A stretch of 64,000 nucleotides of DNA from Bacteroidota bacterium (GTDB lineage: Bacteria > Bacteroidota > Bacteroidia > Palsa-948), in the NCBI GenBank assembly GCA_016213435.1, contig JACRAL010000098.1:141-64140 (forward strand), in the 5' to 3' direction. Below are positions 12,081 through 60,472 of the stretch, in pieces (the stretch's first letter is position 1; each line of letters starts with the position of its first letter). Made by a program: the position numbers and the translations under genes. Under the pieces are notes generated by a model. It made no database searches. It had not been told where the DNA came from and was given only the letters and a program-made list of their open reading frames with translations.

Positions 12081-13631
12081 TTATTGAACATTGGCATCTA
12101 CAAGCAGTACACCAACCAGTGTCGTTACGTTGGCATGTTTCGCCCTGTTTGCAAAACCTGTATAGACAATGGCATTGCGTAGAGCTGCTGCAAATAATGA
12201 ATTTGTACCTATGTTGGTTGTTACAATTATGGTTTGATTGAGTATCGGTGTACCTCCGTTAATGACAATGCCATGAGCATTGGCAGTGTTGCTCAGATTT
12301 TTCAACCTGCCTTTTACTTCCACAATACCACCCGACATGGTAACAACTCCTGCATCTTTTGTTATGACCACATCTCCGTTAATTCTTGCCTGTGCTGAAC
12401 TTCCGGTAACGCTGATATTTCCAACGCCTGAAATATTTCCGTAGTAATTCAGGATGCCTGAATTATTATTGATAAGCACCGCTATATCCGCATCATCCTG
12501 TAAGTCCCCATATACATTGACAATGGCAATGGAAGGAAAAATATTTTGCTGTACATGAATGGCTCCCTGCGTTAAATTACCAACGGTGCGTGTTAATTTG
12601 CCATGCACTTCCTGATAACCTCCTGCGCTCCATGTAACAATCCCACTGGCGGAATTGCTGATAATTTCTTTGGCATAGATGATATGCCTGTGCGTAGAAG
12701 ATGTGCCTGTGATAACGGTACACGCTCTGCCCTGTGCAATAATTTTATTCGCCACCACATATAAATTAGTGGTGGGGTCTGTGGACATCACGCCTTCTCC
12801 GGTTGTATTGATTATATCCCCTGCTACCTGCACATTCACTTTGCATCCACCCCCTGCAAAAATTACAGGTTGAGCAAAAGAACTGGAGGTCATAGACCTG
12901 CATTGAAAATTTATCGTACTGTTATTGAACGATACAATCAATACTGCGGAAGTAGATACCATATCCGCAAAACCTGTTACAGTATAGCTGTGTGTTCCTC
13001 CGGGGTCGTTCCAAAATCCATTTACGGTGCCGCCAAAAGGAAAATGATATGTCAATCCGTTTTTACCAAGTTGTCCGGGTTCATTATATGTTCCGGGAAA
13101 CATGACAAGGGCTTCCCCTGCCACTGCAACAACTTGTGCAGCAGTAATAGTTTTGTATTTGAACTCGGTACTGTTCTTTTTTGCGGTCAGGTCATCGCCA
13201 AAAACCGGGTCCACGTAAAGCGCATTGGTTTTTAACCGCAGGTTTACATTGGTAATTCCCCAACTGTTTCCTACCGCTACCTGATCGCCACCGGGATTAT
13301 CGGAGGTGGCATAGACAAAATCCCCGATTTCTACTTCAGCTCCATTTACCCCACCGATTTTCCCTGCCTGTATGATATAATACGCATCTCCTGTTTGTGC
13401 AGCAGGATAATTGGGATTAGCAGAAGCATCGATGCTGCCGATTATTTTCAATACTCCGGCAGGCAGAATCCCTTCGATACTGAGCGTAGAATAATCATAT
13501 TGTTTTTCATTGACCCTGATTATACGGTCAGGATTATTGAGAATCTGTGTGGACAGGGCAGCGAAGAACGCCTTGTTGTCTATGGCTTCCGGTAGGATGC
13601 CTCCTTTGGGTATCATTTGAATTGCTAACAT
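12081..13631 (-). CDS. beta-helix (pectate-lyase-like) fibre/tailspike-like protein
   Basis: 516 aa, extremely G/N/T/V/I-rich with periodic short beta-strand repeats (VNVQVAGDIINTTGEG, GNISVTGSSAQARINGDVVITKDAGVVTMSGG). Confidence 0.45.
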   Translation of the reverse strand: MLAIQMIPKGGILPEAIDNKAFFAALSTQILNNPDRIIRVNEKQYDYSTLSIEGILPAGVLKIIGSIDASANPNYPAAQTGDAYYIIQAGKIGGVNGAEVEIGDFVYATSDNPGGDQVAVGNSWGITNVNLRLKTNALYVDPVFGDDLTAKKNSTEFKYKTITAAQVVAVAGEALVMFPGTYNEPGQLGKNGLTYHFPFGGTVNGFWNDPGGTHSYTVTGFADMVSTSAVLIVSFNNSTINFQCRSMTSSSFAQPVIFAGGGCKVNVQVAGDIINTTGEGVMSTDPTTNLYVVANKIIAQGRACTVITGTSSTHRHIIYAKEIISNSASGIVTWSAGGYQEVHGKLTRTVGNLTQGAIHVQQNIFPSIAIVNVYGDLQDDADIAVLINNNSGILNYYGNISGVGNISVTGSSAQARINGDVVITKDAGVVTMSGGIVEVKGRLKNLSNTANAHGIVINGGTPILNQTIIVTTNIGTNSLFAAALRNAIVYTGFANRAKHANVTTLVGVLLVDANVQ

Positions 13632-28133: not shown

Positions 28134-28156
28134 CAAATAAACCAAAATCAACACCT

Positions 28157-28180
28157 GTCCTCTCCCTTTAGGGAAGGGAC
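28157..28180. repeat. REP-like hairpin TCCCTT-TAGGG-AAGGGA immediately upstream of cinA start
   Basis: 6-bp stem, core CCCTTTAGGGA shared with the element inside rarA. Confidence 0.4.
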
Positions 28181-28187
28181 ACCTCTA

Positions 28188-29519
28188 ATGTTCGCAGAAA
28201 TAATTTCCATAGGTGATGAGATTCTTATCGGGCAGATCACAAACTCCAATGCACAATGGATGGCTCAGCAGCTGAATCTTATCGGCATCTCGGTAAAGCA
28301 AATCAGCACTGTTGGCGACAATCGCGAAGATGTTATTAGAATATTTTCAGAAGCACTGCAGCGTGCAGATATCATTCTTATTACAGGAGGACTTGGACCC
28401 ACAAATGACGACATAACTAAACAATGTCTCTGTGATTTTTTTAAGACAAAACTTGTTTTCAACGAGCAGTGTTTTGAAGATGTAAAAAAAATGTTTTCTG
28501 ATCGAAATCTTGGAATGCCTGCCATCAACAAAGGTCAAGCAGAACTTCCGGAAAACTGTATTCCTATCAGAAATAAAAATGGAACTGCTCCGGGGATGTG
28601 GTTTGAAGCCCCACCCCAACCCTCCCCGTTAGGGAGGGAGAAAAATCAACAGCAAGTCCTCCCTAATGGGGAGGATATAGGAGGGGCTCTTTTTGTTTCC
28701 CTCCCGGGAGTTCCCTATGAAATGAAAGCAATGATGTCGGATTTTGTGATCCCTGAACTTCAAAAAAGATTTCAAAGAAATTTCATTGTTCACAAAACGG
28801 TTCATACGCAGGGAATCGGAGAATCAGCTCTTGCAGAAAAAATAAAAGAATGGGAGGACTCTCTTGCCAAACATGAAATCAAGCTAGCTTATCTTCCTTC
28901 ACCCGGGCAGGTAAAACTTCGGGTATCTCTAAACGGGAATGATCAGAAAAAAATTACTGACTTGGTCGATGAAAAAATCAACGAGTTAAGGCAATTAATC
29001 CCCGAATACATTTTTGCTACAGAAGAATTCGGAAAAGAGCCGGAGACGCTGGAAAAAGTTATAGGAGAAATTCTCCGAAAGAAAAAGAAAACACTTGCTG
29101 TCGCAGAAAGTTGTACGGGTGGTTATATTGCGCATCTCATTACAAGTATTGCCGGAAGCTCGGATTATTTCAATGGCGGAATTATCGCTTATGCAAATGA
29201 AATGAAAATTAATGTGTTGAAGGTGGATGTAAAAATTTTGGAAGAGAAAGGAGCTGTTTGTAAGGACGTGGCCGAGCAAATGTCAGACGGTGTTAGAAAA
29301 AGACTGAAGGCAGATTTTGGAATTTCAACTACAGGTATTGCAGGACCAACCGGTGGAAGCGCTGAAAAACCGGTTGGTACAGTTTGGATTTCGGTTACGT
29401 CTGACACTGAAATTATATCCGAAAAATTTAATTTCGGCAATAACAGGGAAAGAAATATTCGAAGAGCTTCTTTATCTGCCTTAAATATGTTGAGAACCCT
29501 GTTAGAAAAACATTCCTAA
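28188..29519 (+). CDS. cinA: competence/damage-inducible protein CinA (with about 24-aa in-frame insertion encoded by GC-rich hairpins)
   Basis: N-terminus AEIISIGDEILIGQITNSNAQW, GTAPGMWFE ... LPGVPYEMK motifs, C-terminal CinA domain. 443 aa versus about 415 typical. Confidence 0.85.
   Translation: MFAEIISIGDEILIGQITNSNAQWMAQQLNLIGISVKQISTVGDNREDVIRIFSEALQRADIILITGGLGPTNDDITKQCLCDFFKTKLVFNEQCFEDVKKMFSDRNLGMPAINKGQAELPENCIPIRNKNGTAPGMWFEAPPQPSPLGREKNQQQVLPNGEDIGGALFVSLPGVPYEMKAMMSDFVIPELQKRFQRNFIVHKTVHTQGIGESALAEKIKEWEDSLAKHEIKLAYLPSPGQVKLRVSLNGNDQKKITDLVDEKINELRQLIPEYIFATEEFGKEPETLEKVIGEILRKKKKTLAVAESCTGGYIAHLITSIAGSSDYFNGGIIAYANEMKINVLKVDVKILEEKGAVCKDVAEQMSDGVRKRLKADFGISTTGIAGPTGGSAEKPVGTVWISVTSDTEIISEKFNFGNNRERNIRRASLSALNMLRTLLEKHS
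28611..28711. repeat. cluster of three GC-rich REP-like hairpins embedded in-frame in cinA
   Basis: Hairpins CCCTCC(C)-CGTTA-GGGAGGG, CCTCCC-TAAT-GGGGAGG and palindrome CTCCCGGGAG. They encode PPQPSPLGREKNQQQVLPNGEDIGGALFVS between the conserved WFE and LPGVP motifs. Confidence 0.6.
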
Positions 29520-29570: not shown

Positions 29571-30020
29571 ATGAATACGACAAGATTTCTTCTTTCTTGG
29601 ATTCTGAGTGCATTGGTAATGTTTTCCCTTTCGTACTTATGGCATGGCGTTTTTTTGAATGATCTGCAACGCCTGTCCTATCCTAAAGGAATCTTCCTCA
29701 CCGGTTGCATCATCACTTATCTGATACTTGGGTTTCTTGTTACAAAAATTTATTTAATGAACTATCCGAAATCCATTGCGCGAAAACCGCTTGTCAGAGG
29801 ATTGATTGCAGGCTCGGTGCTTGGGGTATGCACGTATATTGTTTCACTTGTAGTTGGGGTTTCTTTTAATTATACACTTACTCTTGGCAACATCCTTTTT
29901 GACCTTTTATGGCAAACCGTAGAGCAAACCTTCGGAGGAGTTGTAGTTGCATTTGTCTATATCTGGATTTACGAAGGAAATCCTGTTGAGGTGATCGGCC
30001 GAAAAATGTTTGGTGATTAG
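29571..30020 (+). CDS. hypothetical membrane protein (4 TM)
   Basis: 149 aa, hydrophobic helices. Confidence 0.4.
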   Translation: MNTTRFLLSWILSALVMFSLSYLWHGVFLNDLQRLSYPKGIFLTGCIITYLILGFLVTKIYLMNYPKSIARKPLVRGLIAGSVLGVCTYIVSLVVGVSFNYTLTLGNILFDLLWQTVEQTFGGVVVAFVYIWIYEGNPVEVIGRKMFGD

Positions 30021-31339
30021 TATCCGTATTTCTCCTTCCAGTTCTTCTTCAAAAATTTCCGAAATCTTTTCTCTGCATCATTATCTCCCGGTTCATACCA
30101 TTTTGTGCCGCTTAATTCATCCGGAAGAAATTCTGCATTTATAAAATTTCCTTCATAGCTATGAGCATATTGATACTCTTTTCCATAGTTAAGATCTTTC
30201 ATCAGTTGAGTGGGAGCGTTGCGGATAGAAAGCGGAACGGATAGATCGCCAGTTTTTTTTACCGCTTCCTGCGCAGTTCCGATTGCTTTGTAAGAAGCAT
30301 TGCTTTTAGGAGAACAGGCAAGGTAAACAACCGCTTGTGAAAGAATAATTCTTGCTTCCGGCAGGCCAATTGCATTTACTGCCTGAAAACAATTATTAGC
30401 AAGAACAAGCGCCATCGGATTTGCATTGCCCACATCTTCCGAAGCGAGAATGAGCAATCTTCTGGCTATGAAAAGAGGATCTTCACCGCCTTCAATCATT
30501 CTTGCTAAGTAGTAAACTCCCGCATTTGGATCACTGCCACGTATTGATTTGATGAATGCGGAAATAATATCGTAATGCTGCTCGCCCGTTTTATCATACA
30601 AAGCCATTTTCTGCTGAACAACATTCAAAAGATTTTCATCAGTGATTACGATATCTTGCACCCCGCCCTGAAGGGAGCTATTGTCATCACTTTCCCCCTT
30701 TAGGGACGGGGTAATCGAACTCACATATAACTCCAATGCGTTATATAACTTCCTTACATCACCGCCTGAAAGACGAAGCAACGCATCACTTTCTTTCACA
30801 ATTATTTTTTTCTTTTTTAATATCTCATCTGCATGAATTGCATAATCAATGAGTGAGATCAAATCCTGTTTTTCCAGATGATTCAACAAATAAACCTGGC
30901 AGCGAGAAAGCAAAGCGGAAATTACTTCGAACGAAGGATTTTCTGTTGTGGCTCCGATCAGCGTAATGGTTCCTTTCTCCACTGCTCCAAGCAAAGAATC
31001 TTGTTGTGCCTTGCTGAAACGATGAATTTCATCTATGAAAAGTATAGGATAATTTGTTCCGAAAAATGAATCAGCGGATGCTTTGTCAATTACCTCGCGT
31101 ATGTCTTTGACTCCTGAATTGATTGCGCTCAGCTGGTAATAGGGGCGTTTTAGTTGAGTGGCAATGATCCTTGCCAGTGTTGTTTTTCCTACGCCCGGAG
31201 GTCCCCATAAGATCATGGAAGGAATAGTTCCGGCTTCAATGGCTCTTCTGAGAATAGCGCCTTCGCCCACAAGGTGTTTCTGACCGATAAATTCATTCAG
31301 CGTTTTAGGACGAAGCCGCTCTGCTAAAGGAATACTCAT
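30017..31339 (-). CDS. rarA: replication-associated recombination protein A (AAA ATPase RarA/MgsA)
   Basis: Walker A GPPGVGKTTLARIIA, Walker B LFIDEIHRF, and C-terminal MgsA helical/tetramerisation region with YDxxGEQHYDIISAFIKSIRGSD. Confidence 0.9.
   Translation of the reverse strand: MSIPLAERLRPKTLNEFIGQKHLVGEGAILRRAIEAGTIPSMILWGPPGVGKTTLARIIATQLKRPYYQLSAINSGVKDIREVIDKASADSFFGTNYPILFIDEIHRFSKAQQDSLLGAVEKGTITLIGATTENPSFEVISALLSRCQVYLLNHLEKQDLISLIDYAIHADEILKKKKIIVKESDALLRLSGGDVRKLYNALELYVSSITPSLKGESDDNSSLQGGVQDIVITDENLLNVVQQKMALYDKTGEQHYDIISAFIKSIRGSDPNAGVYYLARMIEGGEDPLFIARRLLILASEDVGNANPMALVLANNCFQAVNAIGLPEARIILSQAVVYLACSPKSNASYKAIGTAQEAVKKTGDLSVPLSIRNAPTQLMKDLNYGKEYQYAHSYEGNFINAEFLPDELSGTKWYEPGDNDAEKRFRKFLKKNWKEKYGY
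30664..30711. repeat. GC-rich REP-like element (CCCTGAAGGG ... CCCCCTTTAGGGACGGGG) in-frame in the rarA linker
   Basis: Encodes KGESDDNSSLQGG in a linker about 11 aa longer than in E. coli RarA (sequence recalled from memory). Confidence 0.45.
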
Positions 31340-31422: not shown

Positions 31423-31497
31423 GGTGGTTGTAGCTCAGTTGGTTAGAGCACTAGATTGTGGTTCTAGGGGTCGCGGGTTCAAGTCCCGTCATCCACC
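31423..31497 (+). tRNA. tRNA-His (anticodon GTG) with genomically encoded G-1; no encoded CCA
   Basis: Cloverleaf read by hand: G-1, acceptor GTGGTTG/CATCCAC, D-arm GCTCAGTTGGTTAGAGC, anticodon stem CTAGA/TCTAG with loop TTGTGGT, T-arm GCGGGTTCAAGTCCCGT, discriminator C. Confidence 0.8.
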
Positions 31498-31694
31498 CTT
31501 CTTCAAATTACATTGCGACTCTGACGCACTAGTACTCCTGCGTCAGTAGTCAGAGTGCAGGTCAAAGCGTCAGCATTCAAGTCCCGTCATCCACCCTTCT
31601 TCAAATTACATTGCGGCTCTGACGCACTAGTACTCCTGCGTCAGTAGTCAGAGTGCAGGTCAAAGCGTCAGCATTCAAGTCCCGTCATCCACCC
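31478..31694 (+). repeat. 98-bp tandem repeat (2.2 copies) seeded in the tRNA-His 3' end; the 21-mer TTCAAGTCCCGTCATCCACCC occurs three times
   Basis: Copies at about 31478-31498, 31576-31596 and 31674-31694. The intervening 77-bp units differ by a single nt and contain the hairpin CTGACGCA-N10-TGCGTCAG. Confidence 0.8.
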
Positions 31695-36254: not shown

Positions 36255-36410
36255 TGAGCTTTCCGGCAGAGGATATGAGCTTTTCGGTGGACGATTTGAC
36301 ATTTCCTGTAGAGGATTTGAGCTTTCCGGTGGACGATTTGACATTTCCTGTAGAGGATTTGAGCTTTCCGGTATAGGATTTGAGCTTTCCGGTAGACGAT
36401 TTGACATTTA
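36255..36410. repeat. 21-bp tandem repeat, about 7.4 units (GAGCTTTCCGGTGGACGATTT / GACATTTCCTGTAGAGGATTT alternating; 42-bp higher-order period), filling the gap between the ThiF-nitroreductase gene stop and the GNAT gene start
   Basis: Units 2+3 and 4+5 are identical except for one nt. Both strands are open across the array (ORFs 36213-36407 minus and 36184-36441 plus). Confidence 0.8.
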
Positions 36411-38747
36411 TATTATAGAATTTGTGAATTTTAATACTTGATCAAGGGGATATCTTAATGATCTGAATTTCGGGGGATTATCAATTATAAATCGCATTAA
36501 TAGTACTTTTCCTTTTTGAGGATTGATGCCAAATAAATCTTCAAGTTCCTTCAACAAGGTTGTTGCTTCTTTTCGCATGTTATCTGGAAGGGCATCTTTT
36601 TTACCATATACTAAAGTATTAAATATTAAAATTGATAAAGAAGGAGGGTGGGTGGAGATGTTATCATGATTGGCAGCCAGCCATACTCTTTCTAAAGCCC
36701 GACCGCCTTGGTAAAAATTATTGGTTGTGAATGAAGGCACTGTTAACAGCCCGACAGCGGCTGAGCCGCGAATCCACTTGCGTTGAATTTTTCCAAATGC
36801 AGAACCTAATTCCCAATCGGCAAGATGTTTAACAACCGACCAATCTTTGCTTACAAAAAATCCGGCAAATTCTGTTGGAGTTAGATCCATTGTTTCCTGA
36901 AAGCTAATTCCGTTTCTTGTTCTTTCCGCTTCTTCAATAGTCCAACGAGCTTCTCCTCTAAAATCATTATGTCCTCCTTTGCTCAGATACCTGATTCGAT
37001 CCATCTTGGCGGTTATCTCACTTAGTTTAATGAGCTTATCTTCATCATCTATAATAATCATATCTGCTCCGGGAATGGTGCGGGCAATTTCTTGTAGTTT
37101 ATTTAACCTGTTTTTTTCAATTGTTTTTCTTTGTACAATTGTTCTGTTTGATACTCTGGAGTTGATTGTTTTAGATAAGTGGTCGCACACATGGGGTTCC
37201 AGTTTATCTTTTATTTCAGCATGTGCTGTATCAAAAAAACGAAAGGTGGTTATTAATTTTGTATCGTCATTAATTTCCACTGTTTGAGCTGCTACTTCCA
37301 GTCCGAGCTCATGGGCTTTTAATACCAAATTTTCGGCTGCTGCTCCAAGCCCCGTAATCATGGTTGTTCTTTGGCAATCCAATAAATCGGGACGGAACAC
37401 ATCATCAAAAAAGAAGTATAGATTTTTGTTGTGATACATCCATTTCCATGTCTGGCTGTTTGCTCCGGAGGGAGCTTTAGAGGCAGCTTCGGCTAATTGT
37501 TTAATTGTGTTTTCCGGCAGATCAATTTGTAAGTTCCAGGTTTCTTGATGGGCTGAATGGATTATATCTAACATTTCTTTATCACTCAAAGATGGTTTGA
37601 TATTCAAAGGCTGCTCGATATATTCTTTTGTGTTTTTATCTTTTATTACCTCTTCCAGATCCACAAAATATCTTCCCGAATCATGCAGTTGATTCAGCAA
37701 AACTCTTCGGCACACATCCGCACATATTCCCCCGCCCAAAACCACACCCGATGCCAATTGAGGCCAGGTTGTTATTGTTTGTTCAATTTCCAGCATAGAA
37801 GCCCTTAGCCGGGTGGATGAAGTTTCTACTCCTAACATGGGTAACAGATAAGGAACTTTTTCTTCATTGGTCTTGGCCTGTTTTACTAAACTCAAATCCA
37901 AGTGATCAATCAATCCGTGCAAGATTGGTAATTCAGGGTTTAGATCATAGCGCTCTATATCGGTTGTTCCTTTATCGCTTGAATTCATAACAACGGGAAT
38001 ACGCAGTGACTTTGCTTTTTGACGTGTAAATATCTTTGTATACAAACCATCGCATACCTCAATGCATACATCTAACTTGCCATCTTTTAGAAAAAAGTCA
38101 TCTGCATTTGCTTCGGTTAGTCCATCAGAATACCAGGTAACTTTTAAATAAGGATCAATTTCCGAGATTTCTCTGGCTACCACAATCGTTTTTTTAATTC
38201 CAAAGTTTTGAACTCCGGTTTGTATGCGGTTTAGGTTAGAGAGTTCAATAACATCAAAATCTGCAATCCGGAGCTCACTGCATATTCGTTCCATGGCTAT
38301 GGTTAAAGCAATGGCTTTTCCTACAGACAATCCTATTACTCCAATTTTTTTTGTTGCAAGTATTTTTTCCTCCTCAGGAGTTATCTTATAATGATTCCTA
38401 TTTGTTCTTACTTCCACAAATTCTTTTTCATCCAATATATGTATCAACTTTTTTGACCAAGGGTAGTAAACCCAAACACCGTATTCTTCACTCGGTATAG
38501 AGCCAATATGTTTTTTAGCTGCTTCGGTTAAAGCGCTTTTAGTAAATACTATTTTAGGATTTTGAGATTTTACGAGTTCTTCCAATTGCCCCTGAAGCTC
38601 ATCAAATACATTTATATCGGGGGTTTCTTTAAGTAATTGCGTCAGCTTGTTGTTGTCAGAGGCGTTATTTAAGCGAAAAAACAATGGGTAAGCAACTGTT
38701 TCGCTCGATTTAGTTTGTTTGCATAAAATGGCTAATTTATCCTTCAT
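36408..38747 (-). CDS. E1-like (ThiF/MoeB-fold) - nitroreductase-like (SagB-type dehydrogenase fold) fusion protein, Rv1355c/MoeY-like architecture
   Basis: Rossmann KKIGVIGLSVGKAIALTIAMERICSELRIADFDVIELSNLNRIQ (E1-like nucleotide-binding). C-terminal ASKAPSGANSQTWKW is the nitroreductase-family FMN-binding signature. Confidence 0.65.
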   Translation of the reverse strand: MKDKLAILCKQTKSSETVAYPLFFRLNNASDNNKLTQLLKETPDINVFDELQGQLEELVKSQNPKIVFTKSALTEAAKKHIGSIPSEEYGVWVYYPWSKKLIHILDEKEFVEVRTNRNHYKITPEEEKILATKKIGVIGLSVGKAIALTIAMERICSELRIADFDVIELSNLNRIQTGVQNFGIKKTIVVAREISEIDPYLKVTWYSDGLTEANADDFFLKDGKLDVCIEVCDGLYTKIFTRQKAKSLRIPVVMNSSDKGTTDIERYDLNPELPILHGLIDHLDLSLVKQAKTNEEKVPYLLPMLGVETSSTRLRASMLEIEQTITTWPQLASGVVLGGGICADVCRRVLLNQLHDSGRYFVDLEEVIKDKNTKEYIEQPLNIKPSLSDKEMLDIIHSAHQETWNLQIDLPENTIKQLAEAASKAPSGANSQTWKWMYHNKNLYFFFDDVFRPDLLDCQRTTMITGLGAAAENLVLKAHELGLEVAAQTVEINDDTKLITTFRFFDTAHAEIKDKLEPHVCDHLSKTINSRVSNRTIVQRKTIEKNRLNKLQEIARTIPGADMIIIDDEDKLIKLSEITAKMDRIRYLSKGGHNDFRGEARWTIEEAERTRNGISFQETMDLTPTEFAGFFVSKDWSVVKHLADWELGSAFGKIQRKWIRGSAAVGLLTVPSFTTNNFYQGGRALERVWLAANHDNISTHPPSLSILIFNTLVYGKKDALPDNMRKEATTLLKELEDLFGINPQKGKVLLMRFIIDNPPKFRSLRYPLDQVLKFTNSII

Positions 38748-40915: not shown

Positions 40916-41127
40916 GTTAAGTGTAAAGTTAAGGATTTTTATTTTGAGTGAAACGAAAATTCATTCCTTACTTCCCGTTCCACAAACACTCTTCCTCATG
41001 TTGTTTGATAAGCACGCCCTGTTTTGCGGAACGGTGTAATAATTCAGGATAACCTGCATAGATTTTTGGATAGTATCTGACACAGATACGTGAACCTGCT
41101 CTTTAAAAGTTAATTCATCGGATGGTT

Positions 41128-41480
41128 CTACTTATTCCTCTGCTTTTTGAATCAACAAAGCGGATGATTTTATTCATTCCTCTGCGTTTTGAATTGCTTC
41201 CTCCGATCATGCTATTCATTCCTCCGCTTTTTGAATCAACAAAGCGGATGATTGTATTCATTCCTCCACCTTTTGAATTATTTCATCCGATAATGCTATT
41301 CATTCCTCGGATTTTTGAATTAACAAAGCGGATGATCCTATTCATTCCTCTTCTTTTTGAATTGCTTCCTCCGCTTTTTGAATAAACAAAGCGGATGATT
41401 GTATTCATTCCTCCACCTTTTGAATTATTTCATCCAATCATGCTATTCATTCATCCACTTTTTGAATCATATCCTCCTAT
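41128..41480. repeat. degenerate tandem array, about 42-bp subunits (TATTCATTCCTC-N5-TTTTGAAT-N17) alternating two variants, giving an 84-bp period with about 4 copies
   Basis: TATTCATTCCTC occurs about 9 times and CTTTTTGAATCAACAAAGCGGATGATT four times. The ORF 41122-41385 is a repeat artefact. Confidence 0.7.
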
Positions 41481-47535: not shown

Positions 47536-49257
47536 CTAAAAATCGTAATAAACATTGTTCAGAGAAGTGCGGATTCCAAAGTAAATGAAGTTGGTTTGAG
47601 AGTTTTCAATTGTGCTTGTGCTGCTTCGGTTTGAAATTCCAACCAAAATATTAAAGTTTGTTGCAGGATTTATAAGATAGCCGATATGAAAATCGAAAAT
47701 CCGTAGCGTTGTTTTTATGCCTTGTCCCATTTCATTGTGGGTAGAATTTACTCCATATAAAGCATTGTTATCTGAACTGAAAATGTTATTGCCGTAATTT
47801 CTTCCGAGAGAATCTTTGCCGATGATGGCATAATTCACTTTTACTTCAGTAAAGAGATTTCCGATGCGATAATTCAGGAAAGCAATTGCTTCTTTGAAAT
47901 TTGCTCCGAGCGGATGTGCCAGTGGCTGGTTGTAATGCGTGTAGCTCTGAGCAGATTTTTTTGAAGCATACGAATAAGGACGAACTTGGTTGTACTCGAC
48001 TTGCAAGTGCAGATTTCGTAATCCGAACAAGTCGAAATATTTTGCTCCTGCCTGAAACCCTTGTTTATTATGCAATGAATTTCTTGTAAAATCCTTTGAG
48101 ATGTCATCCAGCATGTATTGTCCGTAGAGGGAAATTGAATTAGTGATCTTGCATTTCAATGTCCATCCGAGCAACACGTTGTTTGTTCCCGCCAATCCTT
48201 CGGAGAGTGCAGCATTATAAATAAGCGGACTGAAATAATTAAAGTTCAAATCTTGCTTGTTCATCGAATCGCTTGCCTGCCAGACAATCCCTTGAAAAAA
48301 ACCTAATTGAATTCTCTTGTTGATATTCCAGCTCAGGAATTGAAAATTTCCTGCTTTCTTTTGGAATAATCTTTCTGTGCCGGGAGGAGTCTTTACTCCT
48401 CCATCCGTCAAATTCATGAACACAGTATAGAGATTTGTGTACTGAAATTTTCCAAAAGAAGAAGCGACACGCAGAAAAGGATAATTGAACGCATTGTCGC
48501 TCAGCAAAAGCGAGCGGTAGCCATCTCCAATAAAATGTTTTCCGATACCTGCTTGAAAATTAAAATACTTGCTTGGGGAATAGGAAACGTATCCTGAAGC
48601 CATCGCAAAGTCATAGCCGTTGGTTTTAAATCTTTTCCATCTGCCTTGGCCCGGCACAACCAAGGAAGCATTATTGAAGTCCTGTATGTAATTAACAAAG
48701 GTTGCTTGATTTTCAAGAAAAGAACTTTCAAAAGAAAAGTTTTTTCCTATATCTCCGCGCAGCAAAATTCCACGCATGTTCTTGTAAAATGATTTTGAAG
48801 AATCCGCACGATCTCTTCCATATTCAAAGTTAAAAAGGGGGTCAATGGTGAGGTGGAATTTGTCGGTGGTATCGTTGACGATGAAAAGATTTTCTTTTCT
48901 AAATTTAGTTCCAATTTTTTTCCAAAAGGTGTTTTGGTATATTTTTTCTGAATGCCAAGTGTTAGAAATAATTGGTTTGAAACAGGATGTAGAATCAACA
49001 TTATAATAAGCGACACCGTATCCTCCCCATGCACTTCCCCATGAATCAATTGCGTCACTTTTCCATTTGATTGTATCTGCATGTGAGTTAATTAGAGATC
49101 GATTTTTTTCTCTTCCCAAGCTCCATTCCCTATTCAAGGGCAAATTTTTTTGCTGAGAAAAGAGAAAGATTGGAAAAAAAATAAATAGTCCCGTTAGGGA
49201 CATAATATTTATAGAAAAAATGTCCGCAGATGTATTTGAGTTCTGTAGGAACGACAT
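47536..49257 (-). CDS. outer-membrane beta-barrel protein, paralog of 44599-46197 (true start probably the Met near 49203, MSLTGLFIFF)
   Basis: See paralog. A REP hairpin overlaps the probable start codon. Confidence 0.4.
   Translation of the reverse strand: MSFLQNSNTSADIFSINIMSLTGLFIFFPIFLFSQQKNLPLNREWSLGREKNRSLINSHADTIKWKSDAIDSWGSAWGGYGVAYYNVDSTSCFKPIISNTWHSEKIYQNTFWKKIGTKFRKENLFIVNDTTDKFHLTIDPLFNFEYGRDRADSSKSFYKNMRGILLRGDIGKNFSFESSFLENQATFVNYIQDFNNASLVVPGQGRWKRFKTNGYDFAMASGYVSYSPSKYFNFQAGIGKHFIGDGYRSLLLSDNAFNYPFLRVASSFGKFQYTNLYTVFMNLTDGGVKTPPGTERLFQKKAGNFQFLSWNINKRIQLGFFQGIVWQASDSMNKQDLNFNYFSPLIYNAALSEGLAGTNNVLLGWTLKCKITNSISLYGQYMLDDISKDFTRNSLHNKQGFQAGAKYFDLFGLRNLHLQVEYNQVRPYSYASKKSAQSYTHYNQPLAHPLGANFKEAIAFLNYRIGNLFTEVKVNYAIIGKDSLGRNYGNNIFSSDNNALYGVNSTHNEMGQGIKTTLRIFDFHIGYLINPATNFNILVGISNRSSTSTIENSQTNFIYFGIRTSLNNVYYDF
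49188..49201. repeat. REP element GTCCC-GTTA-GGGAC 3' of the RAYT gene
   Basis: Perfect 5-bp stem. Inverted orientation relative to the REPs at 49761-49824. Confidence 0.6.
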
Positions 49258-49258
49258 A

Positions 49259-49720
49259 TTATTGTATTTCTTTTAAAACATACCGTTCATCGTACTCAAC
49301 ATTAAATTTCTGTAACAATTTCGTGTATTTTTCTTTGAATGTCCTTTTCTGATGATGATGCTCCTGATTATTGATGTATTTAACAACCCTGTCAATATGA
49401 GAGTGAGAATAAGAAAATGCACCATAACCTTCCTGCCATTTGAATTTGCCTTTCACAAATCCTTTTTTATTAATCCAGCCGGAAGAATTTCCCTTAATGT
49501 CTTGCAGTAAATCCGGAATTAATTGGTGTGGCTTGTAGCCAATAAAAATATGAATGTGATCAGCCACGCCATTGATTGCAATCAATTTGTGTTTATTGTT
49601 TTGCACTATGCCTGTAATATATTTATACAACTCATCCTTCCATGAATTATTAATCAGGGAAATTCTATCTTGAACGGAAAATACAAATTGAATGTATAAT
49701 TGGGTGTATGTATTTGCCAT
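49259..49720 (-). CDS. IS200/IS605-family Y1 (HUH) transposase, REP-associated tyrosine transposase (RAYT)-like
   Basis: 153 aa. HUH motif DHIHIFI and GYGAFSYS...YINNQEHHH C-terminal Tyr helix, characteristic of Y1 transposases. Flanked by REP hairpins. Confidence 0.75.
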   Translation of the reverse strand: MANTYTQLYIQFVFSVQDRISLINNSWKDELYKYITGIVQNNKHKLIAINGVADHIHIFIGYKPHQLIPDLLQDIKGNSSGWINKKGFVKGKFKWQEGYGAFSYSHSHIDRVVKYINNQEHHHQKRTFKEKYTKLLQKFNVEYDERYVLKEIQ

Positions 49721-49736
49721 GTTTTGAATATTGTGT

Positions 49737-49824
49737 CCCTATGGGGCTATAAACATTTTGTCCCTAACGGGATTTGCATGGTTGGTTTCTTTTTCTATAA
49801 ATATCCTGTCCCTCACGGGACAGG
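49737..49824. repeat. three REP-like hairpins 5' of the RAYT gene (CCC-TAT-GGGG; TCCC-TAAC-GGGA; CCTGTCCC-TCAC-GGGACAGG), the last abutting the fcl stop codon
   Basis: Read directly. All share the GTCCC...GGGAC core. Confidence 0.6.
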
Positions 49825-49826
49825 GA

Positions 49827-58495: not shown

Positions 58496-60472
58496 TTATT
58501 CGGATTGGATACTTGGTTTTTGTTGTTTATCTAACTCTTCATACACTGAATTCTGACTTCTGAACTCAGGTACAATTTCTTTCATTCTTTTTACAATAGC
58601 AGTGCTGTCTTGATTTTGAAGAAGGGAAATCAGCGCACCCACTTTTTCTGAAACTTCCTCGTGTCCATATTCCCTCACCTTGCCAACCATAATCTGAGGA
58701 TTGTGAGTGGGAAGCGTATTTTCTTTTGTGGCAAGAAGTTCTTCGAAAAGTTTTTCCCCCGGACGCAATCCGGTGTAAACTATCTGTATGTCTTTCCCGA
58801 GTGTGAGTCCTGCAAGCTGGATCATCTTTTTGGCGAGGTCAGCAATCTTGACCGACTGTCCCATGTCGAACACAAAAATTTCTCCGCCTTTTCCCATCGC
58901 GCCTGCTTCTAAAACCAATTGGCATGCTTCGGGAATGGTCATAAAAAAACGTGTGATATCCGGATGAGTAACGGATATTGGTCCGCCTCTTTCAATTTGG
59001 TGTCTGAAAAGTTGAATCACCGAACCGTTAGATCCGAGCACATTTCCAAAGCGGGTGGTGATGAATTTGCAGCCCCCTCTAACTCCCCCTTCAGGGGAGG
59101 ATTTATTTTCGCCCTCCCTGAAGGGGAGGGAAGGGGTGGGGCTGAGCGATTGCACATACATCTCCGCAATTCTTTTTGAAGCGCCCATTACGTTGGTGGG
59201 ATTAACGGCTTTATCAGTAGACACCATCACGAATTTTTCTACTCCGTGTTTTACCGCGAGATCGGCCATGATCTTGGTGCCGAGCACATTGGTTTGAATG
59301 GCTTCAAGCGGATGGTGTTCCATCATCGGCACATGCTTGTATGCCGCTGCATGATACACAACTTGGGGAGAATATTTACTGAAAATACTTTCCATCCTTT
59401 CTTTATTTCTCACATCGGCAATCACAATTTCAAAAGAGCGCAGGTGGAAAATATTTTTCAGTTCCATCTCCATTTCATAGAGAGGAGATTCGGCAGTGTC
59501 GATCAGAACTATTTTTTTTGAATTGAATTTTGAAAGCTGTCTCACGATTTCGCTTCCGATAGAACCCGCAGCCCCGGTTACAAGAATCACTTTGTCGCGT
59601 GTCTGCCGTTTGATGTTTTCCATATCAAGTTTGATCGGATTGCGTTCGAGAAGATCTTCAATGCGAACTTTTTTTATCTGCTTGAAACTAAGCTCTCCGT
59701 TTATCCAGCTGCTCACCGGAGGCACATTCAGGATTTTGGTATTGTATTTTAAACATATTTCCACAATTTCTTCTTTTCGTTTCGCGGGAATATTTTGAAC
59801 AGAAATGATCATGTGTGCTACGTTTCCATCTCGTAGAAGTTCTTCCAGTTTGTTAAATCCGTAAATAGTAATTCCTTCCAGTTTGCTTTCCCATTTTTTT
59901 TCGTTGTCGTCAATAAAGGCAAGCACTTTGTATTTCATTCCTGCATCGCGGTCAAGTGTTCGCTTGGTGATGATGCCTGATTCGCCCGATCCGAAAATGA
60001 TGACGCTGGTTTTTGTGCGACTTGGATTTTTCCATTCGAGATAAATGGATTTAAAAATGAGCCGCAGGCTGATCATCAGGAAAGTGGTCGTCATGTATTC
60101 AATGACGAGGATGGAGAAGGGGATAATAAATGTATCTGTAATAAAGTAATATTTTATGATATTGGCAATAGCAAAAAAGATACTGCCAAGTGTGGTGACG
60201 ATAAAAATCCGTTGTGCATCTCTCGAACTGGTATAGCGAACAATGCCTTTATGTGTTTTTGAAATAAAAAAACTCAAAGCACGTACTCCGATTACAAAAG
60301 GGAAAATAAGAGGAAATGTGTCTAATTCCACCTGTGGAATTGCTGCGAAGTTGAAGCGGAGCAAATAGGCGATGATAAGAGCAAAAAAACAAATGAACAG
60401 ATCGATCAGGAAAATTATCCAGCGCGGAGCGGTGCGTTCAAAGAGAAGCATAATTTTTAAATTTGTGTTCAA
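58496..60472 (-). CDS. membrane-anchored polysaccharide biosynthesis protein CapD/PglF/WbpM-like (UDP-sugar 4,6-dehydratase)
   Basis: N-terminal 4 TM. Rossmann ILVTGAAGSIGSEIVRQL, GASKRIAEMYV and RFGNVLGSNGSV motifs. Confidence 0.8.
   Translation of the reverse strand: MNTNLKIMLLFERTAPRWIIFLIDLFICFFALIIAYLLRFNFAAIPQVELDTFPLIFPFVIGVRALSFFISKTHKGIVRYTSSRDAQRIFIVTTLGSIFFAIANIIKYYFITDTFIIPFSILVIEYMTTTFLMISLRLIFKSIYLEWKNPSRTKTSVIIFGSGESGIITKRTLDRDAGMKYKVLAFIDDNEKKWESKLEGITIYGFNKLEELLRDGNVAHMIISVQNIPAKRKEEIVEICLKYNTKILNVPPVSSWINGELSFKQIKKVRIEDLLERNPIKLDMENIKRQTRDKVILVTGAAGSIGSEIVRQLSKFNSKKIVLIDTAESPLYEMEMELKNIFHLRSFEIVIADVRNKERMESIFSKYSPQVVYHAAAYKHVPMMEHHPLEAIQTNVLGTKIMADLAVKHGVEKFVMVSTDKAVNPTNVMGASKRIAEMYVQSLSPTPSLPFREGENKSSPEGGVRGGCKFITTRFGNVLGSNGSVIQLFRHQIERGGPISVTHPDITRFFMTIPEACQLVLEAGAMGKGGEIFVFDMGQSVKIADLAKKMIQLAGLTLGKDIQIVYTGLRPGEKLFEELLATKENTLPTHNPQIMVGKVREYGHEEVSEKVGALISLLQNQDSTAIVKRMKEIVPEFRSQNSVYEELDKQQKPSIQSE
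59083..59130. repeat. two GC-rich REP-like hairpins (CTCCCC-CTTCA-GGGGAG; CCCTCCC-TGAAG-GGGAGGG) in-frame in the capD-like gene
   Basis: They encode about 20 extra residues (PTPSLPFREGENKSSPEGGVRGG) between the conserved YVQSL and TTRFGNV motifs. Confidence 0.55.

Follow-up and report, generated by a model that had tools for sequence, protein, structure and literature searches.

The capD/PglF-like gene at positions 58496-60472 (minus strand) of a 64,000-nt stretch of DNA from a Bacteroidota bacterium of the Palsa-948 lineage (contig JACRAL010000098.1, positions 141 to 64,140 of the forward strand; this whole stretch is hereafter called the window, and all coordinates are its positions) carries an in-frame 75-nt insert, a single palindromic repeat element with two GC-rich hairpins as its inverted end modules. 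The insert is a lineage-specific, frame-keeping insertion that took place after the split from the closest sampled relatives. We consider it probable, at roughly 0.6, that this feature is an insertion from a family of repeat elements whose hairpins flank genes for DUF559 nucleases. The narrower step that the element was mobilised by DUF559, taken alone, is a tentative proposal to which we give somewhat less than an even chance.

A palindromic insertion in the capD/PglF-like gene

The host gene is an intact open reading frame (ORF) of 658 residues encoding a membrane-anchored UDP-sugar 4,6-dehydratase, with the insert at about residues 444-468. The protein matches Polysacc_synt_2 in Pfam (E = 8e-117) and shares 42% identity with Campylobacter PglF over the catalytic domain of the latter; its Pfam domain, its STDKAV and M..K motifs and a fold like that of PglF (below) all place it with the PglF/CapD-type enzymes. 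In its alignment with PglF 5BJU, which includes STDKAV and NVMGASKR, a gap of ~20 residues falls exactly at the insert. A sequence-only reading of the window had pointed to two GC-rich, near-perfect palindromes in frame in this gene, and a hairpin scan recovered both with perfect stems: CTCCCC-CTTCA-GGGGAG at 59083-59099 (6-bp stem, 5-nt loop) and CCCTCCC-TGAAG-GGGAGGG at 59112-59130 (7-bp stem, 5-nt loop). GC-rich hairpins with a stem of at least 5 bp number only 15 in the whole 64 kb, these two included. The decamer CCCTGAAGGG, which the same reading had noticed in both the hairpins and a copy in rarA, occurs nine times in the window with at most one mismatch (2.19 expected; 0 of 100 shuffles reach nine), and its exact copies stand at 59087, 59116, 20397 and, in rarA, 30666.

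Together the two hairpins make up a single long palindrome of 75 nt, which the sequence-only reading did not see. The whole element (59069-59143, minus strand; coding strand AGCCCCACCCCTTCCCTCCCCTTCAGGGAGGGCGAAAATAAATCCTCCCCTGAAGGGGGAGTTAGAGGGGGCTGC, translation SPTPSLPFREGENKSSPEGGVRGGC) stands in place of native loop codons, and its parts are likewise given on the minus strand. The left end module (59112-59143) consists of the flank AGCCCCACCCC, TT and the hairpin CCCTCCCC-TTCA-GGGAGGG, which is the hairpin at 59112-59130; it is followed by an A-rich spacer of 12 nt, CGAAAATAAATC (59100-59111), at the position where long forms of the element hold a DUF559 ORF. The right end module (59071-59099) is the inverted counterpart of the left one and is made up of the hairpin CTCCCC-TGAAG-GGGGAG (59083-59099), TTAGA and GGGGGCT. 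An outer inverted repeat, CAGCCCC...GGGGCTG (59144/59070), encloses the element, and the 81 nt from 59066 to 59146 fold as a single long imperfect hairpin whose outer pairs are CAGCCCC/GGGGCTG, with RNA folding energies of -42.4 kcal/mol for the coding strand (z = -2.75) and -50.1 kcal/mol for the plus strand (z = -4.2). Four of the six reading frames of the element are open. No Rfam family was matched, the scan of the whole window giving one tRNA and the permissive scan of the element only sub-threshold microRNA-like hairpin matches at chance level. On the template strand of the gene, the left module (59124-59143, plus strand of the window), as every left module, also spells GGGGAGGGAAGGGGTGGGG, a G-quadruplex/i-motif sequence of the canonical four-tract type.

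Two further genes of the window carry elements of this kind. The sequence-only reading had named the rarA copy; a much closer sister copy is the 82-nt element at 28607-28688 (plus strand), in frame in cinA (28188-29519) and read in a frame that differs from that of capD (APPQPSPLGREKNQQQVLPNGEDIGGA), which is 87% identical to the capD copy over the left 38 nt. The palindrome in rarA (30017-31339) is shorter, 53 nt at 30660-30712 on the minus strand, also in frame, and belongs to the related CCCTAAAGGG subfamily (ACCCCGTCCCTAAAGGGGG...CTCCCTTCAGGGCGGGGT). A solitary imperfect hairpin of the same style, TCTCCCTTTAGGGAAGGGA (28154-28180, plus strand), lies just upstream of the cinA start codon and is possibly related, its match being weak (E = 2.7). 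The count for the 64-kb window is two close copies and one to two related ones, and several copies per metagenome-assembled genome (MAG) were seen elsewhere. A single conserved reading frame was considered for the family and rejected, since the capD and cinA frames differ and other genomes use both orientations.

Orthologous comparison established the insertion at each of the three genes. The sequence-only reading had claimed that about 20 residues are added between GASKRIAEMYVQSL and TTRFGNVLGS, motifs that it took to lie normally about 8 residues apart, and it had staked the claim on a length difference between orthologs; the alignment gives 19 added residues and a normal spacing of 9. Measured from GASKR to RFGNV, the distance is 25 residues in 115 of the 120 closest homologs and 44 in the window protein (+19), and in the full alignment of the family sample internal insertions of more than six residues are confined to the capD loop, in three proteins. 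At the capD site of an 87%-identical ortholog (L003/L004) the insert is missing, and the DNA sequence reads TCG CTG AAC AAA GAA TCT CAA ACA AAA TTT; the 75 nt stand in place of 18 nt (AAC...ACA; AACAAAGAATCTCAAACA in L003), which makes the window gene longer by 57 nt or 19 codons. The sites in cinA and rarA are empty in the syntenic locus L123, whose CinA is 86% and RarA 93% identical: in the window cinA, 81 nt take the place of 18 native nt (net +21 residues), and the window rarA is longer by 48 nt or 16 residues. Relative to the relatives, native nucleotides are missing at all three sites, 18 in capD, 18 in cinA and ~5 in rarA, and no target-site duplication was found at any of them. No shared target motif was found among the sites, GAATC near those of capD and cinA being within chance. 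An assembly artefact was considered and rejected, because like inserts appear in independent assemblies from NCBI, JGI, ENA and Logan. The Cys codon 3′ of the insert, present in the window, L002 and L054, was entertained as a mark of co-conversion and dropped, as the uninserted homolog P0033 has Cys as well.

The same loops have received other inserts. In the PglF/CapD loop, homolog P0017 (L001, 4001-5962) bears an independent palindromic insert of the CCCTAAAGGG subfamily (+27 residues), P0044 (L002, 425-2377) one made of a different GC-rich palindrome (+19 residues), and a Prevotellaceae MAG (L054) has an element of the family in the same loop of its PglF/CapD homolog. Locus L003, where the capD site is empty, has rarA-type members in frame in an MqnA-like (VitK2_biosynth) gene, one complete doublet and one lone half-element, at 12438-12462 and 12584-12637, which indicates that this lineage too has the family, active or simply present, at other sites. 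The CinA loop after APGMWFE, where the window element sits at 28607-28688, is a hot spot, with inserts of 5-29 residues in ~40 of 120 close homologs (P0246, P0247, P0252, P0256, P0258, P0274 and ~35 others); some of these derive from the capD-type hairpin family (QPSPKGK...SSPPLGE), and others from a different palindrome family that is translated as GNxQLAxSNNTEDKxLPTANCQL.

The structural surroundings of the insert were assessed on an AlphaFold model of residues 268-658 (49 homologs; predicted template modelling score, pTM, 0.83), which superposes on PglF 5BJU with template modelling (TM) scores of 0.90-0.92. The predicted local distance difference test score (pLDDT) falls below 50 at model residues 180-198, that is, protein residues 447-465 inside the insert, and this is the only low-confidence internal segment of that size. 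The insert, for which the sequence-only reading had suggested looking at a PglF structure, is thus a low-confidence internal loop in the model, and its peptide is predicted to be a disordered loop. The segment is preceded by helix 161-175, itself placed after the catalytic M..K motif, and followed by strand 202-207. In the Rossmann topology of short-chain dehydrogenases/reductases (SDR), loops leading from a helix to a strand lie at that edge of the sheet which faces away from the active site; because of this helix-to-strand position, the insert loop is probably on the far side of the sheet from the active site and distal to it.

The hairpin family in other genomes and its association with DUF559

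Membership in a phylum-wide family and the link to nuclease genes go beyond what the sequence-only reading had reached. An exact-pattern scan for AGCCCCACCCCNNCCCTCCCC, covering one genome per species, gave at least 118 stretches. Among the matches listed, 96 of 118 come from Bacteroidota, where they include Prevotella, Bacteroidales, Flavobacteriales, Cytophagales, Sphingobacteriales, Chitinophagales and Saprospirales, and the remainder come mostly from high-GC phyla; in nearly all of them the pattern is followed by a loop and then by GGGAGGG(AG). The capD left module matches an nhmmer profile built from 128 module copies of other genomes with E = 2e-6, and the capD right module is near-identical to the right module of an element held by an acetyl-CoA-synthetase-like (Acs) ORF in L042, a fragment that has no Pfam match at the 1e-10 cutoff and was recognised by eye. 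If a site is counted as intragenic when its open frame spans 200 codons or more and extends 40 codons or more to either side, 37 of 128 listed sites (~29%) are intragenic. Such copies read SPTPTLPxxEG and APPQPSPxG or, from the opposite strand, SPLGRVGVGL or FGEGWGGA, and in three hosts, MetH, ValRS and methylmalonyl-CoA mutase, Pfam confirmed the host domains on either side of the element. Short doublets like the capD copy, 58-167 nt in length, account for ~35 of the listed sites, and the shortest are mostly intragenic.

Several arrangements beyond the single doublet were observed. A ValRS gene of Cytophagales (L025) has at least three hairpin inserts, and a helicase-like ORF of Emticicia (L014) has two. 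In histidine-kinase-like ORFs of metagenome contigs (L155, L156, L164, L170 and L201), the half-modules APTLKGE ... TPSGAGG bracket ~15 native-looking residues (NYEPTVWVTTKRIS), which may be a single element that captured a spacer, or else two halves standing alone. The left-module hairpin also forms tandem arrays at a spacing of 56-67 nt in some Bacteroides/Prevotella MAGs (L013 1400-1540, L044 3665-3819 and L060 5583-5715).

The association with DUF559, which is a Vsr-like PD-(D/E)xK nuclease, is seen in the long forms. In WecB (L022, L071) and IleRS (L038, L049), the left module is followed in frame by ~110 residues of DUF559, which sit between the halves of the host domain (Epimerase_2 and tRNA-synt_1, respectively) and match the Pfam family with E = 3e-32 and 1e-33. 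Searched with a hidden Markov model (HMM) of the nested domain, 8 of the 118 listed loci contain DUF559. The distance from the start of an upstream motif to the domain is 108-114 nt in three loci, and in L038 an inverted motif follows 15 nt downstream. Hairpin modules stand on both sides of seven of the eight DUF559 copies and only upstream of the eighth, the truncated copy in L114. The long forms in IleRS occupy one identical site in three families, the third being Flavobacteriaceae (L061), and free-standing DUF559 genes with modules on both sides were found in L054 and L120. In an alignment of modules, the left end of the capD element groups with the modules 5′ of DUF559 in L049, L022 and L071, and its right end with those 3′ of DUF559 in L049, L022, L071 and L124; the DUF559-flanking modules in this alignment include those of an isolate genome, Draconibacterium halophilum. 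DUF559 also occurs 180-330 nt downstream of the rarA-type motif CCCCRNCCCTAAAGGGRGAAA in three to four independent loci among the matches listed in a metagenome scan, where that motif is mostly intergenic.

With one nested DUF559 as the query, 3,675 relatives were obtained at E <= 1e-10, mostly called as 'endonuclease domain-containing proteins' of 120-170 residues. Further nested copies were recognised among homolog fragments of RecG, NAD-epimerase, Acs and IleRS, with hairpin-encoded peptides at the junctions. Two other loci show less regular layouts. The ValRS gene of D. halophilum (L124, CP048409.1, 1157850-1161266) is called as at least three ORFs, with the DUF559 ORF between modules in the +1 frame; the host frame hits a stop codon, a second frame break follows ~600 nt later, and either the essential gene is truly fractured or homopolymer sequencing errors in the GC hairpins are responsible. 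The MetH gene of Flavobacterium davisii (L125, CP067378.1) contains one DUF559 in nested position, and another DUF559 ORF overlaps its 3′ end.

Competing origins and known systems

On the reading that we favour, the capD element would be the short, nuclease-less (miniature) form of an element whose long form has the DUF559 ORF between the same two modules. It would have spread, in the past or at present, as a non-autonomous element served by a DUF559 nuclease in trans. The route may be break-and-repair rather than cut-and-paste, as suggested by the 18 nt of target missing at both capD and cinA together with the lack of a target-site duplication. The insert would be translated as 25 residues in place of six and stay in the protein, harmless and with no role for the enzyme, and it would have persisted through the absence of a stop codon in the frame used, its frame-keeping length and a loop that is probably away from the active site.

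Several observations weigh against this account. A motif and HMM search found no DUF559 in the 64-kb window, and we know of no demonstration that DUF559 proteins act as a transposase or move DNA. It is equally conceivable that the short form is a target that a DUF559 homing gene has yet to invade, instead of a deletion derivative. In a Bacteroides MAG (L013) the same hairpin motif stands on both sides of an IS200-family Y1 transposase. At 87% identity across 38 nt, the two close copies of the window give no support to recent activity here. Stop-codon depletion is also unconvincing, with 2.97 open frames of six compared with 2.57 in shuffled sequence, and the idea of a sequence designed for ORFs is accordingly not supported.

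The transposase in L013 bears on a different origin, namely a doublet of repetitive extragenic palindromic (REP) hairpins of the kind called REPINs, moved as single-stranded DNA by a Y1 (HUH) transposase of the IS200 or REP-associated tyrosine transposase (RAYT) type, with DUF559 as a passenger or secondary invader. The capD element has the architecture of a REPIN, two inverted palindromic units in one long hairpin, and shares with the REPIN/RAYT systems its many copies and wide distribution. In L013 three tandem AGCCCCACCCC..CCCTCCCC hairpin copies lie directly upstream of the transposase gene and one downstream, and the window itself encodes an IS200/IS605-family Y1 transposase flanked by inverted hairpin repeats (49259-49720, minus strand, within the region 49188-49825; Pfam Y1_Tnp, E = 2e-26). 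The hairpin beside this gene is, however, a different one, GTCCC-NNNN-GGGAC with CTATAAATAT tails, and a module profile search found no capD-type module there; the other Y1 genes found (L023, L216) likewise have unrelated hairpins, and the L013 protein falls under the NCBIfam RAYT cutoff (33 vs 80 bits). An adjacent Y1 gene occurs in one of the 118 listed loci, as against four with DUF559 beside the motif, three of them at fixed spacing, and eight with DUF559 in all, so that DUF559 and not Y1 is the usual neighbour. The GTAG/CGTC tag that marks most REPs (PMC3733652) is neither in nor beside the modules. Whereas REPs are extragenic, these elements are largely intragenic, all three window copies included, and whereas Y1 transposition is precise, 18 nt of target are missing here at two sites. 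We regard an origin through a Y1 transposase as rather unlikely, though still a serious contender. The layout of the window Y1 locus can be described in its own right as RAYT-like with its own hairpin family: on one side stands GTCCCGTTAGGGAC followed by ATAATATTTATAG, and on the other are two inverted copies (CTATAAAcATttt/CTATAAATATcct and then GTCCC-NNNN-GGGA(C)) and a third hairpin.

The long forms raise the question of whether a short form such as that in capD ever moved alone. It may be a relic formed in situ, where a full DUF559 element once sat in the capD loop and its ORF was later deleted between the modules. The same two modules do flank DUF559 in the long forms, at least three further lineages have received palindromes in the PglF/CapD loop (P0017/L001, P0044/L002 and the Prevotellaceae L054), as homing and decay would give, and the IleRS long forms share an identical site in three families. 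Yet none of the 120 closest PglF/CapD homologs has a DUF559 of full length at this position, nothing recognisable as a DUF559 remnant stands in the 12-nt spacer, and short doublets with near-identical spacers recur in unrelated genes within single MAGs (Cytophagales L015/L050/L070/L086; L025/L026), which fits copying of the short form. We regard such a relic as quite improbable. A host-selected origin, in which the insert is no selfish DNA and serves as a loop extension or as a regulatory RNA or DNA structure (translation pausing, an RNase III site or a G-quadruplex/i-motif), draws on the strong mRNA hairpin of -42 kcal/mol, the four-tract G run on the template strand and the still perfect capD hairpins. 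Against it, the same sequence recurs between genes and inside unrelated ones (cinA in the window and, in other genomes, MetH, ValRS, Acs and MCM), the insert is missing from 115 of the 120 closest orthologs, no Rfam family is matched and the insert peptide is predicted to be disordered, and we give this origin very little credence.

Compared with known systems, the family combines features of several. Rickettsia palindromic elements (RPEs) are in-frame palindromic repeats in unrelated housekeeping genes, translated and judged fold-compatible (PMC10969869), and the capD, cinA and rarA palindromes are like them in lying in frame in unrelated genes at fold-compatible sites. Unlike RPEs, these elements have a Bacteroidota host, are 53-82 nt long (RPEs ~100-150) and very GC-rich in an AT-rich genome, use several frames and both orientations instead of one conserved peptide, and possess a nuclease-bearing long form, which RPEs lack; the likeness concerns the way of working only, since the host phylum differs and no sequence homology is expected. 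[quoted passage not shown] The capD element has 75 nt, terminal inverted repeats and no transposase gene, and lies inside a host ORF, as a MITE might. Unlike MITEs, it and the cinA and rarA copies have no target-site duplication, the partner is a PD-(D/E)xK nuclease and not a known transposase, and the short doublets are strongly biased to coding sequence.

The long forms invite comparison with two further systems. Vsr-like homing endonucleases occur in 'fractured genes' and group I introns (Dassa et al. 2009, PMC2677866; I-Bth0305I, PDB 3r3p, PMC3424549); they are of the same Vsr/DUF559 clade of PD-(D/E)xK nucleases, and the present nucleases resemble them in lying inside conserved enzyme genes, in having hairpins beside the nuclease ORF and in sometimes being free-standing and splitting the host gene, as in the D. 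halophilum ValRS. The homing cases are mainly from phage, in split inteins or introns, and are not described with inverted GC-rich modules, in-frame nesting or miniatures; the capD copy, unlike them, has no nuclease. Inteins also are in-frame intervening sequences in essential genes, and the long form shares with them an endonuclease domain. A Pfam search, however, found no Hint or splicing domain in the long forms, only DUF559 and the host domains, and the 25-residue capD insert is far too short to splice and is presumably kept in the mature protein.

Other repeats of the window and meaning of the insertion

Two further kinds of repeat were noted in the window. A tRNA-His gene (31424-31498) is followed by a 98-nt unit present 2.2 times at 99% identity (region 31424-31694); the unit begins with the last ~20 bases of the tRNA (TTCAAGTCCCGTCATCCACCC) and looks like an att-site-type or tandem duplication at the tRNA 3′ end. 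Tandem repeat arrays lie at 36255-36424 and 41119-41426, with periods of 21/42/63 nt and 42/84 nt and 71-87% matches; as these periods are multiples of three, the arrays probably encode repeat proteins.

In-frame palindromes (Rickettsia), Vsr-like homing endonucleases (phage fractured genes) and REP doublets with RAYTs are already known. In the literature covered, which is incomplete and leaves subscription journals largely outside, we found no description of this Bacteroidota family, nor of DUF559 with hairpin ends or in in-frame elements. As a possible wider account, which we put forward tentatively and hold to be a little short of even odds, DUF559 proteins would be the nuclease of phylum-wide intragenic mobile elements in Bacteroidota. 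In such elements, inverted GC-rich hairpin modules would bracket the ORF, and the whole unit would enter loops of essential enzymes (IleRS, ValRS, MetH, WecB, RecG, Acs) in frame and without splicing, the host keeping the nuclease as an extra domain; the doublets would be the miniatures, and break-and-repair would remove a few target codons.

For the capD gene itself the consequence is small, a disordered loop extension of 19 residues in the predicted structure, probably away from the active site. More broadly, should the link to DUF559 hold, there are practical consequences: the GC-rich, homopolymer-laden inserts lead to split gene calls and odd annotations ('RecG, partial', 'methylmalonyl-CoA mutase', 'guanylate kinase'), and they point to loops in many enzymes where insertions are tolerated, a help to protein engineering. 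The family would then be a second, independent case, beside the RPEs of Rickettsia, of selfish palindromes in coding sequence, and one in which, unlike the RPEs, a candidate enzyme is available and long forms sit unspliced inside essential genes. If the link to DUF559 is true, it would give a role to a large family that still bears the name of a domain of unknown function.

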